A DNA stretch of 64,000 bases from Candidatus Bathyarchaeota archaeon (GCA_963815095.1 CAWFFH010000007.1:32001-96000), one strand, 5' to 3'; counted from the first letter of the stretch, positions 20,075 through 24,145 are shown. Translations and numbers: made by a program. The notes: a model not told the origin generated them from the letters alone.

Positions 20075-21565
20075 TCATTCAATTGATGCGCCAACATCAC
20101 CCGTTGACGGAAGGGGATTCTTAGAAGAAGGTACTGCTGTATTCTTTGATGCTCGGTTAATTTGCAGAATAGAAGGAAGAATAGCTAGAGCGTTAACGAT
20201 TGCGATAGCAAAATATGCAGATTTGATGCTTGCCATGAAGAGCATTTGTTCAGATGACGTTACAGAAGTAGCGCCAACTTGAGTGATAATTCTTGTAATT
20301 AAAGAGTAGGGAGCTGTAAAGGACATAATCAATATGGCAAAGTTGAGGCTAACGCTTAATCCTATATTGAGAAAAAGCCCAACCAACGCCGATCCAACGC
20401 CGCGCCTCTGCATTGGAAGAGCACCCATTACAGACCGCAAATTTGGAGCTAAAAACAAGCCAGTAGCAACCCCCATAAAAGCCATATACAAAGCCAATAA
20501 AGAGTAAGGCGTTGAAGCATCAGTGGTCGATAAAAGAAAAAGCATCACAGATCCCAAACTCAAACCCGTCAAGATAAACCTAGAATACCCAAACCTATCA
20601 GACAGTGTTCCACTAAGCGGACCAACAGCCAAAAAAGCAATCTCAAAAGGCAAAATGCTAATACCCGCCTGCAACGGCGTCTGGCCTCGAGCCAGCTGAA
20701 ACTGCAAACTCAAAAGCAAAAGCATAGCTGCCCAAGCTATAACATTAAGCAAAACAGCCAAAACCCCACCAGAAACTTCCCTGATTCTAAAAATATGAAA
20801 ATCAATCAAAGGAGACCGACTGCGCCTCTCCCACAAAACAAACAGCAACACAAAAATTCCAGACGCCACAAAAAGCCCCAAAACAACCGCCGACTCAACT
20901 GAAACGTAAGCGCTAATTGTTAAACCAACCATCAAAGATAAAAGAAAAACTGCAAATAAACCAAATCCAACCCAATCAATCTTTGCATTTTTATCTAAAA
21001 CCGCCACTTCTTTTAGTCGCCTTCTCGCCCAAAAAGTGCCAAAAATCCCTACGGGAATATTGATGTAAAAAAGAGCTCGCCAATCCAGAAAAGACAAAAT
21101 TAAGCCACTTAAAGTTAAGCCCAATATTGCTCCGGCTCGATATGAGATTTGGTTGATTCCAACAAACAAACCCAGCTGGCGGCGAGGAGTGGCATCTGTT
21201 ACAATGGCGATGCTGTTGGCAAAAATAAGAGCTGCACCTGCTCCCTGAATGGCTCTAAATATTATTACTGAAAGAGGGTTAAAGCCCAGGCTTGTTAGAG
21301 CTGATCCAACGGTGAAGATGGCAAACCCAAACCAATAGAGTCGCACTCTACCAAAAATATCAGACAACCGCCCAATCAACAACAACAAAACGGTAGTTGT
21401 TAAGACATAGGACTGGGTAATCCAAACGGCTTGCTCTGCATCTGCACCTAACTGATGAGCAACCTGCGGCAAACCTATGATGACTATGCGGGCGTCAAGT
21501 CCAACCATAAAAATGCCGATGGTTGTAACAGTTATGGCTACCCATTTATACTCCAAAAAAATCAC
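20075..21565 (-). CDS. MFS efflux transporter, DHA2 (EmrB/QacA) type
   Basis: ~14 TM; GRLSDIFGR, RAIQGAG, WRALFYINIPVG, IDWVG. Confidence 0.92.
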   Translation of the reverse strand: MIFLEYKWVAITVTTIGIFMVGLDARIVIIGLPQVAHQLGADAEQAVWITQSYVLTTTVLLLLIGRLSDIFGRVRLYWFGFAIFTVGSALTSLGFNPLSVIIFRAIQGAGAALIFANSIAIVTDATPRRQLGLFVGINQISYRAGAILGLTLSGLILSFLDWRALFYINIPVGIFGTFWARRRLKEVAVLDKNAKIDWVGFGLFAVFLLSLMVGLTISAYVSVESAVVLGLFVASGIFVLLFVLWERRSRSPLIDFHIFRIREVSGGVLAVLLNVIAWAAMLLLLSLQFQLARGQTPLQAGISILPFEIAFLAVGPLSGTLSDRFGYSRFILTGLSLGSVMLFLLSTTDASTPYSLLALYMAFMGVATGLFLAPNLRSVMGALPMQRRGVGSALVGLFLNIGLSVSLNFAILIMSFTAPYSLITRIITQVGATSVTSSEQMLFMASIKSAYFAIAIVNALAILPSILQINRASKNTAVPSSKNPLPSTGDVGASIE

Positions 21566-21729
21566 CGGAAACTAACTTATATCAAAAAATAAACAAACTA
21601 TTAACCTTTTCACACGCAAAATAAGCCAGCTATATCGTGATACCTTTTAATTATGTTACCAATATGGGATTTAGGTTCATTCGATAAGTACTAATACTTC
21701 AGCTCCATTGAAACATATTGGCGAATTTT

Positions 21730-22362
21730 ATGGTTTTTTTCTTAAACGATTATCTTGTTGCCAATGGAATAAGCCTAAGAAAACGAGTTTCCGACCTTTT
21801 TGATGAATTAGAAAAGAACAATGAATTAGCCCAAGTTTTCATACAAAACCCAACGCTTGTTTTGCAATCCAAAGTTTTGCCTGAATTCCAAGTGCTCGAA
21901 GAAAACTCAATTAACGCCGCAAATCAACTTTTGTTCTCTGTTTTAAGTAACGACAAATTCATGAAGTGGACCCAAGACTACGGGACAAAACTGATTGATC
22001 GATATAACAAAACAGGAAAGGTTCCTGACAAAAAGAAAATACTGCGAGATTTCGCAAAAGGAATTATCGAATATGGGGACCCAGAATTGCTCAGTGACAT
22101 TCTTGAAATGCCCCAAGAACTAATTGAATCGTCCTCAGGGCTCGTTGATCGCTGGTGGTTTTACTATCATATTATTGCGTTCATTGAATTCTTCTACATT
22201 TTCGTATACGACTATATCATTGTTGGTCCAGACAGAATCAGCCTGCTGGATGAAAACCAAAAAATTGTAACGATTTCACCTAAAGAACTCAAATCTTTGG
22301 CTGAACAAATGATTAAATATTCAAAGAAAATGAAAGAAGATAATAATTTGGATAATCATTAA
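21730..22362 (+). CDS. Putative RiPP precursor-like protein 1 (paralog of next gene)
   Basis: Aligns with 22381..23055 except for the aromatic segment DRWWFYYHIIAFIEFFYIFVYDYIIV; ATG 21730 chosen by alignment and the shared cgaatttt leader. Confidence 0.6.
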   Translation: MVFFLNDYLVANGISLRKRVSDLFDELEKNNELAQVFIQNPTLVLQSKVLPEFQVLEENSINAANQLLFSVLSNDKFMKWTQDYGTKLIDRYNKTGKVPDKKKILRDFAKGIIEYGDPELLSDILEMPQELIESSSGLVDRWWFYYHIIAFIEFFYIFVYDYIIVGPDRISLLDENQKIVTISPKELKSLAEQMIKYSKKMKEDNNLDNH

Positions 22363-22380
22363 CTAAATGGACGAATTTTC

Positions 22381-23055
22381 ATGGGCTTTTATTTGAATGA
22401 TTTCCTCACAACTAATGGCATAAACCTCAGAAAACGCGTATCTGATCTATTCGACGAGTTAGAGAAAAACCCTGAATTAGCTACGGCCTTCATTCGCAAC
22501 CCGATAGTTGTTTTGCAAACAAAAATTTTCCCAGAATTCCCAAAGTACGATGTAAATCGAACAAATGAAGCAAACCAATTTCTCTTTTCAGTGTTATCTA
22601 ACGATAAATTCATGCAGTGGCTACAAAAATACCAAAAACAAACAATCATTCATTACAACAATTCCGGAAAACTACCAACTAAACAAAAAGTACTGCAAGA
22701 ATTCGCAAAAGCCTTAATCGAAAATGGCGACCCAAAAATACTGGGCGACCTACTGGACACTTCTCCAAAAACCATGGAACAATTAAACTCTTCTAAAATG
22801 ATAGAAATGGATTTTGTAGTCAGCAACAAGAATTTCGCCATATGGGAATATCTCTTTTTGATTCGAATCTCGCTTTTTGTCTACAACTACGATTACTTTA
22901 CTTACCAAGCAGCTGGGATAGGCAAAATAGACATAATTGATGAACAACACAAAATTGTCACAGTTTCTTCGAAAGAACTTCGGTCCCTATCAGATCAAAT
23001 AGTAAAATATGCCAAGCAAAAGCGAGAACAAACAGAAGAGAAAAAACTTGAATAA
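22381..23055 (+). CDS. Putative RiPP precursor-like protein 2
   Basis: Paralog of the previous gene; variable segment NKNFAIWEYLFLIRISLFVYNYDYFTYQ. Confidence 0.6.
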   Translation: MGFYLNDFLTTNGINLRKRVSDLFDELEKNPELATAFIRNPIVVLQTKIFPEFPKYDVNRTNEANQFLFSVLSNDKFMQWLQKYQKQTIIHYNNSGKLPTKQKVLQEFAKALIENGDPKILGDLLDTSPKTMEQLNSSKMIEMDFVVSNKNFAIWEYLFLIRISLFVYNYDYFTYQAAGIGKIDIIDEQHKIVTVSSKELRSLSDQIVKYAKQKREQTEEKKLE

Positions 23056-24145
23056 AACACAAACCACACAAAACATAGCTACAACCCCTGTCAAAGGTGT
23101 GTTTCGCGGCCCAAGAACACTCTCAATTATGCCAACCTTTAGATGCGTAGCAAACTGCACATCATGCGGCACCCTTAGCAACCCAAACGACAAAACCAAA
23201 CTCACACTTCCAACCATCAAAAAATGCATCATACAAGCAAAACGCAGCAACTTTGCAAACATCGTTTTTACAGGCGGAGAAGCCACACTATGCTGGAAAA
23301 ACCTGCTAAAAGCCATTAAAGAAACAAAAAAACAGGGAATGGTGACTCGACTAGTAACCAACGCTCACTGGGCAAAAACCCCCAAAAAAACACTACGAAC
23401 CATTAAAACCCTAAAAGAAGCAGGATTAGACGAAATAAATTTTAGCACAGGCGACGAACACGCAAAATTTGTTCCCATACAAAATGTAATTAACGCTATT
23501 TCAGCATCAATTTTCCATCACCTAAAACCAGCAGTCATGGTTGAAGATAGAAACGGAAGAACAATCACAAAAAACAAAATTCTTCGCAACCCAGAAATAA
23601 AAAAAATACTTTCAAAGGACAAAAACAATTTGACCTTTATGGAAAGCCCCTGGATGCCGCTTGATCCATTCAAAATTGAACAATACCAAAAAACCGCCAT
23701 AGCAAACAAACAAAATCTAGATTCATTTACGAGTTGCGACACTGTTTTGCAATCTCTCACAATTTTGTCAGATGGAAATATTTCAACATGCTGCGGATTT
23801 GGAGCCAGGTTAATACCTGAACTTTTAGTCTCAAATGTGCACAAACCAAATTTCGTCGCGGAAGCGATTGAGAATACGGAAAATGACTTTATGAAAATCT
23901 GGCTTCACTATGAGGGACCGATTAAAATTTTGGCTTGGGCGGCAGAAAAAAACCCCGCTATAAAATGGGAAAATATGTATGCTCACTGCTGCCAAGCCTG
24001 CCTAAGAATCTACAAAGATCCAACGGTTATGCAAACCATTAAGGAGAATTATAAAGAAAAAATTGGCTCAGTCTTGAGCAGTGCTTGGATGGAGGAAGTC
24101 TTCATTCCAACGCGCTTCCAAAAACAAAGCATCCCAGCAAACTGA
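23048..24145 (+). CDS. Radical SAM enzyme, YydG/EpeE peptide-epimerase-like
   Basis: CVANCTSC, FTGGE, VTNAHWA, FSTGDEHAKFV, DGNISTCC, LHYEG, CCQAC; TTG start overlaps the upstream stop. Confidence 0.8.
   Translation: MNKTQTTQNIATTPVKGVFRGPRTLSIMPTFRCVANCTSCGTLSNPNDKTKLTLPTIKKCIIQAKRSNFANIVFTGGEATLCWKNLLKAIKETKKQGMVTRLVTNAHWAKTPKKTLRTIKTLKEAGLDEINFSTGDEHAKFVPIQNVINAISASIFHHLKPAVMVEDRNGRTITKNKILRNPEIKKILSKDKNNLTFMESPWMPLDPFKIEQYQKTAIANKQNLDSFTSCDTVLQSLTILSDGNISTCCGFGARLIPELLVSNVHKPNFVAEAIENTENDFMKIWLHYEGPIKILAWAAEKNPAIKWENMYAHCCQACLRIYKDPTVMQTIKENYKEKIGSVLSSAWMEEVFIPTRFQKQSIPAN

Follow-up and report, generated by a model that had tools for sequence, protein, structure and literature searches.

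An EpeE-related radical SAM enzyme paired with protein-sized candidate precursors in a Bathyarchaeota archaeon

What might an archaeon make with a radical S-adenosylmethionine (SAM) enzyme that is encoded directly behind two large paralogous proteins of no described family? The question is raised by a three-gene unit, consisting of parA, parB and a radical SAM gene, in a genome of a Candidatus Bathyarchaeota archaeon. All positions given here refer to a 64,000-nucleotide (nt) stretch of this genome, which we call the window. An original prediction, made from the DNA sequence of the window, had proposed an archaeal cluster for a peptide that is made by the ribosome and modified after translation (a RiPP), with an epimerase like YydG/EpeE, two precursor-like paralogs and a divergent exporter. 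The reading that we favor, to which we assign an even chance, is that these three genes together make up a stand-alone substrate-enzyme cassette that moves horizontally, and that the enzyme modifies a variable segment of the partner proteins, likely by epimerization. The features of the unit are as follows.

21730..22362, plus strand: parA, encoding a 210-residue precursor-like protein with core type 0 (open reading frame (ORF); start set by homologue alignment; member of the partner family)
22105..22236, plus strand: variable core of parA, residues 126-169 (conservation profile, core typing and composition)
22381..23055, plus strand: parB, encoding a 224-residue paralog with core type 1 (ORF; likeness to parA)
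22756..22926, plus strand: variable core of parB, residues 126-182 (conservation profile, core typing and composition)
23009..24145, plus strand: EpeE/YydG-like radical SAM enzyme, 378 residues (ORF; family, PDB and Foldseek matches)

The tight unit described in the original prediction is present with all of its ORFs, and its spacer between parA and parB is exactly 18 nt (22363-22380). An overlap of parB with the radical SAM gene is also present, but at 47 nt it is larger than the start/stop overlap that had been proposed. The ATG at 21730 was preferred to the listed TTG at 21718 as the start of parA, because alignment with parB and other homologues matches there. The ParA and ParB proteins are 49% identical over 216 columns (E = 3e-70). 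A later enzyme start, the ATG at 23129, was ruled out because a conserved GVFRGPRT stretch lies upstream of it.

Kinship and cysteines of the enzyme

The top NCBIfam match of the enzyme is TIGR04078 (58.4 bits, E = 8.1e-16), an equivalog model of the YydG/EpeE family of radical SAM peptide epimerases, which aligns at model positions 2-304 of 309 with enzyme residues 37-347. The same model is the top match for 10 of 10 more distant enzyme relatives, at 56-115 bits. Because the score of the window enzyme is far below the curated cut-off of 300 bits, we place the enzyme in a sister family of EpeE that apparently retains the catalytic machinery, rather than in YydG proper.

Searches of the PDB gave a consistent picture. 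With the single enzyme sequence as query, only three EpeE variants among all PDB sequences match at E ≤ 0.01. A profile of 30 enzyme members matches EpeE at its positions 14-318 of 356 (E = 3.7e-20), and EpeE is the only PDB family that this profile matches along its whole length; the runner-up, PqqE (6.5e-6), is matched in the N-terminal core only. An AlphaFold2 (AF2) model of the enzyme has a mean predicted local distance difference test score (pLDDT) of 89.4. When this model was used in Foldseek, the top nine matches were all EpeE chains (E about 1e-17, template-modeling (TM) score 0.76-0.80), which superpose with root-mean-square deviations of 3.6-4.4 Å over about 335 columns. The next match is BlsE (1.6e-10, TM score 0.50). 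The SPASM/twitch maturases AlbA, anSME, PqqE, SuiB and CteB resemble the enzyme in that a Cys-rich Fe-S domain at the C-terminus follows the radical SAM core, and they act on a ribosomal peptide or protein, as is presumed for the enzyme. However, their sequence similarity is confined to the N-terminal core and they are much more remote, with Foldseek matches of this class at E values of 1e-10 to 1e-8 and TM scores of 0.3-0.5.

Six motifs that the original prediction had paired with YydG are all paired in HMMER alignments of the enzyme to EpeE chains: FTGGE with FTGGE, TNAHWA with SNGFWG, DEHAKFV with EYHAPFV, DGNISTCC with DGEIYPCC, LHYEG with LRKEG, and CQAC with CGVC. The proposal of a YydG/EpeE-like enzyme holds as to type, by sequence, fold and the position of the hydrogen-donor Cys, with the qualification that the enzyme is not a member of the curated YydG family.

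All 30 of the 30 enzyme members share eight invariant cysteines: C46, C50, C53, C243, C261, C262, C328 and C331. The first three form the CX3CX2C motif of the radical SAM cluster (30/30 members). C243, C261, C328 and C331 are of T-SPASM type, and the CxxC formed by the last two pairs with the CGVC of EpeE. The Pfam SPASM model scores 16.4 bits on the enzyme, below its cut-off of 21.5. According to excerpts of two papers (PMC13012085, PMC5682303), EpeE has an extended twitch (T-SPASM) domain with one auxiliary cluster, and the hydrogen donor that quenches the Cα radical from the opposite face is Cys223. The modeled structure of the window enzyme has the EpeE-like fold with an extended twitch domain, whose cysteines are putative cluster ligands. 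In the C223A chains of EpeE (8ai3 and 8ai4), the replaced residue pairs with the second Cys of the enzyme's CC; we therefore take C262 as the apparent counterpart of Cys223 and as the putative hydrogen donor. The enzyme thus resembles EpeE in its radical SAM core, its presumed one-cluster T-SPASM domain and its set of cysteines, including the position of Cys223. It differs from EpeE in an extra C-terminal helix (residues 349-373), which is predicted to hold the partner.

The partner proteins and their pairing with the enzyme

The partners fit no described precursor family in Pfam or NCBIfam, as had been proposed for the two paralogs. ParB has 48 homologues in a collection of 5.8 billion proteins, none with a Pfam domain, and a profile search of 1.84 billion representatives found 413 partner representatives at E ≤ 1e-3. 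Scans of Pfam and NCBIfam gave no above-cut-off family for the two window proteins, for 24 partners (in NCBIfam) or for 10 distant partners. Among those 24, none matched NHLP or Nif11 models at E ≤ 1, and no YydF-type or other NCBIfam match was found for any; NHLP/Nif11-type Pfam families were likewise absent from the two window partners and the 10 distant ones. DUF5969, a weak lead from the ESM Atlas (0.80), was rejected; it is missing from the Streptomyces partner in Pfam at E ≤ 1. A Foldseek comparison of the partner fold with the PDB gave no match at E < 1, which is not evidence of a new fold, and in a wide VIA-align search, generic helical matches were the only ones seen (best Z 5.2).

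The partners have three parts. In 44 close members, the frequency of the commonest residue per 10-column block is 0.64-0.92 across the N-terminal part, which spans about 120 columns. It falls to 0.05-0.45 in the middle and is 0.65-0.83 in the C-terminal tail. The middle, or core, falls into seven discrete types among these members, and parA and parB differ in type. Within a type, identity is 0.81 in the N-terminal part, 0.73 in the core and 0.78 in the C-terminal part; between types, the corresponding values are 0.65, 0.21 and 0.63. The AF2 model of the partner (overall pLDDT 65) has a helical N-domain, with pLDDT of 69-88 per 10-residue block over residues 21-120, and a C-terminal helix. These proteins therefore appear to have the general layout of a RiPP precursor beside its enzyme, that is, a conserved recognition region and a hypervariable core. 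The original description of the paralogs as precursor-like is borne out by this layout and by their conserved adjacency to the enzyme.

The composition of the cores bears on what might be done to them. The parA core contains 12 aromatic residues, 12 Val, Ile or Leu residues and no Cys, and that of parB contains 11 aromatic residues and no Cys. To survey cores more widely, we examined the best 149 of the 413 representatives, and recognized both ends in 48 of them. Cores of these 48 are 28-106 residues long (median 40); they divide into 31 strongly hydrophobic and 17 polar ones, with Cys-rich examples among the polar cores. Because of the 17 polar cores, the middle is more than a plain transmembrane anchor. 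The partners on two metagenome contigs (L039 3276-4211 and L040 3920-4696) have a short hydrophobic segment, a long low-complexity stretch rich in Ser and Asp, and a conserved C-terminal tail.

The same enzyme-substrate pair could instead introduce C-C, C-O or C-S crosslinks of the cyclophane or sactionine type, or some other radical modification, into the aromatic-rich core. We consider this unlikely. The 11-12 aromatic residues of the window cores and the Cys-rich polar cores of the wider family are compatible with it, as are the distance of the enzyme from EpeE (about 17-18% identity) and its score below the TIGR04078 cut-off, and SPASM/twitch enzymes that begin with a carbon radical of this kind yield thioether or C-C linkages, according to an excerpt of PMC5682303. 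However, the equivalent of the hydrogen-donor Cys is invariant in 30 of 30 enzyme members and pairs with Cys223, and the structural relatives that follow EpeE are much more remote. Also, the cores of parA and parB have no Cys, and thioethers are therefore excluded in them.

Partner and enzyme genes are found together across genomes and metagenomes. The original prediction had suggested that it would be refuted if homologues of the paralogs usually occurred without the enzyme. This is not what we observed: a metagenome scan with the partner profile yielded eight loci, and in seven of these the enzyme lies directly downstream; the eighth holds a truncated partner of 69 residues on a contig of 1243 nt. 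In the opposite direction, a search seeded with the enzyme yielded 12 genome loci. A partner detected by hidden Markov model (HMM) lies directly upstream in six of them, in one or two copies. Four further loci have adjacent same-strand ORFs that, by eye, share the three-part layout. Three of the four are of alphaproteobacterial type, with two or three tandem ORFs of 153-205 residues arranged as conserved-variable-conserved, and in the remaining one, from Prevotella, a similar ORF lies downstream. The other two of the 12 loci comprise one at a contig end and one with a truncated enzyme.

Homologues of the enzyme fall into at least 477 clusters, and relatives also occur on 11 plasmid records. 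In all eight of the records examined, an adjacent ORF on the same strand encodes a protein of about 130-370 residues with a hydrophobic stretch, and all eight ORFs, including that of Halocatena, are annotated as hypothetical proteins. The partner HMM detects two of them (Streptomyces and Thermus), and the other six were recognized by layout alone. A parB search of 401 genomes of the phylum found matches in two, counting the window's own genome, and there were none in 10 genomes of the same genus or in 25 genomes of the same family that were searched.

Complex prediction with ESMFold2 suggests that the enzyme binds its partner. Three runs gave interaction prediction scores from aligned errors (ipSAE) of 0.00, 0.84 and 0.86. 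The median of 0.84 passes the mark, which 58 of 80 solved complexes and two of 110 mismatched pairs reached in calibration, and the best of three controls scored 0.14. The partner had a pLDDT of at least 52, with a reported agreement between runs of at least 0%. On the partner side, the predicted interface consists of N-domain residues 2-98 and the C-terminal helix (184-196). On the enzyme side, it consists of residues 28-33, 205-206, 238-244 (beside C243), 288-295 (a conserved loop) and 345-370 (the C-terminal helix). The predicted docking fits recognition of the partner through its conserved ends.

A docking of this kind might also be expected if the partner were an accessory protein, such as a scaffold, chaperone or membrane tether, and the enzyme acted on something else. 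The size of the partner and its confidently predicted helical domain suit such a role, and the interface is made by the conserved parts and not by the core. We nevertheless consider it highly improbable, given that a cassette-like hypervariable middle would be surprising in an accessory protein, as would one to three tandem copies with different middles for a single enzyme, and that no other conserved gene accompanies the pair.

Boundaries, neighbors and movement of the unit

The following features lie at the edges of the unit in the window.

20075..21565, minus strand: divergent, DHA2-like transporter of the major facilitator superfamily (MFS), a neighbor and no conserved member of the unit (ORF; Pfam/NCBIfam)
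21667..21729, plus strand: putative leader or promoter stretch that moves with the unit (start of the blastn block shared with locus L008)
24085..24285, plus strand: N-terminal remnant of a UvrD/PcrA helicase, a 66-residue ORF (Pfam UvrD-helicase, E = 6.4e-7; NCBIfam PcrA, 3.6e-6)

The nearest relative is locus L008, from a metagenome-assembled genome (MAG) of Bathyarchaeota whose enzyme is 92% identical to that of the window. A blastn comparison shows that the DNA shared with this locus extends from 21667 to 24143, with 83% identity over 2533 columns. This block comprises the leader region, parA, parB and the enzyme gene, and nothing else. The flanks vary among relatives: toxin-antitoxin genes lie beside the L008 copy and other genes beside those at L009 and L010.

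The original prediction had placed the MFS gene within the cluster as its exporter. A divergent gene of DHA2 type is indeed present, with a match to Pfam MFS_1 (5.9e-39) that is well above the cut-off and a top NCBIfam match to the DHA2/EmrB model TIGR00711 that is below it (202.5 bits; cut-off 230.2). Its adjacency across a 164-nt intergenic region and its kinship with an efflux family would suit export of the modified product, and some distant relatives have exporters nearby, namely ABC transporter genes at the Lactococcus, Enterococcus and Clostridium loci. However, 0 of the 12 related genome loci contain an MFS match, the L008 copy shares only the unit itself and has toxin-antitoxin genes alongside instead, and G+C content is 43% in the MFS gene versus 37.4% in the unit. 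Membership of the exporter in the cluster is not supported by these data, and we judge it quite improbable that the MFS protein belongs to the system.

The original prediction of an archaeal cluster also needs qualification, in that the system is not specifically archaeal. In a midpoint-rooted tree of 37 enzymes, constructed without a characterized outgroup, the window enzyme falls in a 10-member clade (support 100/100) of Bathyarchaeota and Syntrophorhabdales that is set among bacterial clades. Bacteria account for most of the relatives, and the archaeal copies are confined to a single tip clade; the named bacterial homologues include those of Stigmatella, Chromobacterium, Massilia and Thermosporothrix. 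The family is often plasmid-borne and has probably moved horizontally. In two contigs of Syntrophorhabdales type (L010 5326-7047 and L034 4001-5722), the unit has 44% G+C and the flanks have 55-56%, and the enzyme shares 70% identity with its archaeal counterpart. Such features suggest either that the unit passed recently from one domain to the other or that the contig is chimeric or was binned wrongly.

Downstream of the unit, the predicted UvrD fragment was confirmed by a match to positions 27-70 of the 271 positions of Pfam UvrD-helicase. The remnant lacks the first ~26 model positions and everything past position 70, and its homology begins near the end of the shared block at 24143. It may be a scar of the insertion of the unit, or it may reflect plain decay. 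Farther downstream, a 330-residue ORF without a family match (24725-25717, minus strand) has 84.7% DNA identity to a stretch of L008. The L008 counterpart is 3.5 kb from the enzyme gene, compared with 0.6 kb in the window, and the spacer is variable. Another ORF (25816-27258, minus strand; 480 residues) matches the MCM winged-helix domain only weakly, in its C-terminal part and below the cut-off (E = 0.024), and may be part of an integrated element.

Upstream, a two-gene pair (18601-19080, plus strand) has as its second gene (18817-19080) a ParE-family toxin (Pfam, 1.2e-6), and the first gene presumably encodes the antitoxin. A heliorhodopsin gene (10746-11597, plus strand; Pfam PF18761, E = 1.8e-84) precedes a gene for a SOUL heme-binding protein (11682-12215, plus strand); the closest relatives found here of the genome that carries it are Bathyarchaeota MAGs. 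The same genome (G000) has a second, distant relative of the enzyme, 26-28% identical, at G000:C1:174138-175062 (minus strand; loci L002 and L003). Parts of this gene lie in separate ORFs of 220 and 60 residues and one matching stretch contains four stop codons, and the gene is probably a pseudogene. No RNA run is listed for the sequence, and seven DNA runs contain at most 26% of the sampled words.

Several neighbors of bacterial copies hint at function. On plasmid pTA14 of Thermus aquaticus (L026 2599-6074), a partner with a Tat-like N-terminus (by eye), the enzyme, an SdpI-family gene and a gene for a 381-residue methyltransferase occur in that order; this locus is the most complete-looking cluster among those examined. 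The core of this partner has 16 of 16 Asn residues in one two-residue register within 40 residues. An alphaproteobacterial partner core similarly has 13 of 13 Thr residues in one two-residue register within 28 residues. In two Bacteroidota loci, bPH_5 membrane proteins are encoded downstream of the enzyme, the Lactococcus copy is flanked by a C1 peptidase as well as its ABC transporter, and the Eleftheria partner has a Tat-like N-terminal signal (by eye). The SdpI, bPH_5 and peptidase or transporter neighbors fit a toxin and immunity setting and a membrane-active product.

Some of these surroundings could also fit a conflict or defense cassette, in which the enzyme matures or arms a membrane-disrupting protein for abortive infection or addiction and no product is secreted. 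Toxin-antitoxin genes are found around the unit (the ParE toxin at 18817-19080 in the window, and PIN-type genes, identified by eye, at L008), an AbiE pair adjoins the Enterococcus copy, many copies are plasmid-borne, and the archaeal copies are without a signal peptide or exporter. However, PADLOC found nothing for the partners and, for the enzyme, no model beyond generic similarity to the viperin core. Moreover, the Tat-like signals of the Thermus and Eleftheria partners and the SdpI and bPH neighbors fit an exported toxin with its immunity better. We regard a defense role as very unlikely.

Proposed chemistry, related systems and significance

Our favored reading is thus a substrate-enzyme cassette that moves as a unit. 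The enzyme would combine a [4Fe-4S] radical SAM site with a single auxiliary cluster, housed in its T-SPASM domain, and with a conserved Cys on the far side of the substrate. It would grip both conserved ends of a partner of about 200 residues, the helical N-domain and the C-terminal helix, and would act on the hypervariable, hydrophobic, aromatic segment that is held between these ends. A 5'-deoxyadenosyl radical would abstract a Cα hydrogen and C262 would return a hydrogen to the opposite face, which would convert selected L-residues to D-residues. The product would probably be membrane-active, and might be either a cleaved peptide resembling a toxin or bacteriocin, or the whole modified protein. 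We infer the core as the site of modification, as well as the membrane activity and any release of a peptide, from the features described above.

The closest known system is the epipeptide system of Bacillus subtilis, which consists of EpeX/YydF, EpeE/YydG, the EpeP protease and the EpeAB transporter. The known epipeptide precursor has 49 residues in total, with a described leader of 32 residues. The precursors of the window have 210-224 residues, with a folded N-domain and a conserved follower, although the substrate segment is hydrophobic in both systems. Also unlike epeXEPAB, the unit has no dedicated protease or ABC transporter that we could find in the window, among the ORFs inspected or scanned between about 10.7 and 35.4 kb (five of these ORFs have no family match). 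In addition, the family occurs in Archaea and many bacterial phyla. The known epipeptide product is membrane-active, as stated in an excerpt of PMC8326336.

Proteusins, such as polytheonamides and landornamide, provide a second comparison. Their NHLP-type precursors share with the partners a large structured leader and hydrophobic cores. According to the same excerpt (PMC8326336), PoyD epimerizes every second residue, and PoyD-type enzymes are not homologous to EpeE. The two-residue periodicity of some partner cores (Asn in Thermus, Thr in one alphaproteobacterial partner) resembles the PoyD pattern, and a methyltransferase is also encoded at the Thermus locus. However, PoyD and OspD, compared here by description only, have the radical SAM cluster as their sole cluster and a C-terminal RiPP recognition element, whereas the window enzyme is of EpeE type with T-SPASM cysteines. 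The partners also differ from proteusin precursors in matching no NHLP or Nif11 model and in having the core in the middle of the protein rather than at the C-terminus.

Several points weigh against our proposal. The epimerization itself is putative. The identity of about 17-18% between the enzyme and EpeE, like the score of 58.4 bits against a TIGR04078 cut-off of 300, leaves room for a different radical outcome, and D210 of EpeE, which was mutated by the depositors of 8ai6, pairs with Ser or Thr in an alignment that may be off by one or two residues. Among the three complex runs, one gave a score of 0.00, and the variable core is left unplaced in the predicted complex. In the AF2 model the parA core is drawn as a helix, with pLDDT mostly about 50 or lower and stretches below 50. 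A size of 210-224 residues and a conserved C-terminal follower are unusual for a released peptide. The wider partner family is also loosely joined. The comparison of alphaproteobacterial with archaeal partners by hhalign was not significant (probability 0.4%, E = 0.16), one borderline jackhmmer match (9.8e-4, in a small database) links the two, and the Firmicute, Eleftheria, Halocatena and Prevotella partners are tied to the family by position and layout only. Finally, no conserved protease, exporter or immunity gene lies beside the archaeal copies, and immunity-like neighbors occur in a minority of loci.

A bolder and more doubtful proposal concerns the family as a whole. It might represent an undescribed and widespread product class, in which an EpeE-type epimerase writes D-residues into a mid-protein cassette of a folded partner of 130-370 residues, with the conserved ends clamped on the enzyme and the segment presented as a loop. 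Relatives with periodic cores might then make a channel of the alternating D/L β-helix type. If so, such channels would be convergent with polytheonamides, through an unrelated epimerase and an unrelated leader, and the product class would comprise about 400 partner representatives in Archaea and many bacterial phyla, with many copies on plasmids.

To our knowledge, two settings have been recognized for radical SAM peptide epimerases, one being the small Firmicute epipeptides and the other the proteusins. We found no published account of a large partner protein paired with an EpeE-like enzyme, although the homologue lists or similarity networks of Kubiak et al. 2023, which reportedly describes EpeE structures, and of Benjdia et al. 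2017, which is said to treat YydG, may include the family. A targeted look in a survey of Bacteroidales RiPPs (PMC10352776) likewise gave no description of it. If our reading is true, the unit would represent a third setting: an EpeE-type enzyme that works with a protein-sized, three-part precursor of an unnamed family. Apparently, it amounts to a route, not described before, to modified peptides or proteins that are membrane-active. It would offer a defined pair with which recognition of a folded leader and a follower together by a radical SAM enzyme can be tested, a natural library of swappable cores and a possible source of membrane-active peptides that contain D-residues. With its low-G+C counterparts in Syntrophorhabdales, it would also give a tangible example of genes passing between Archaea and Bacteria.

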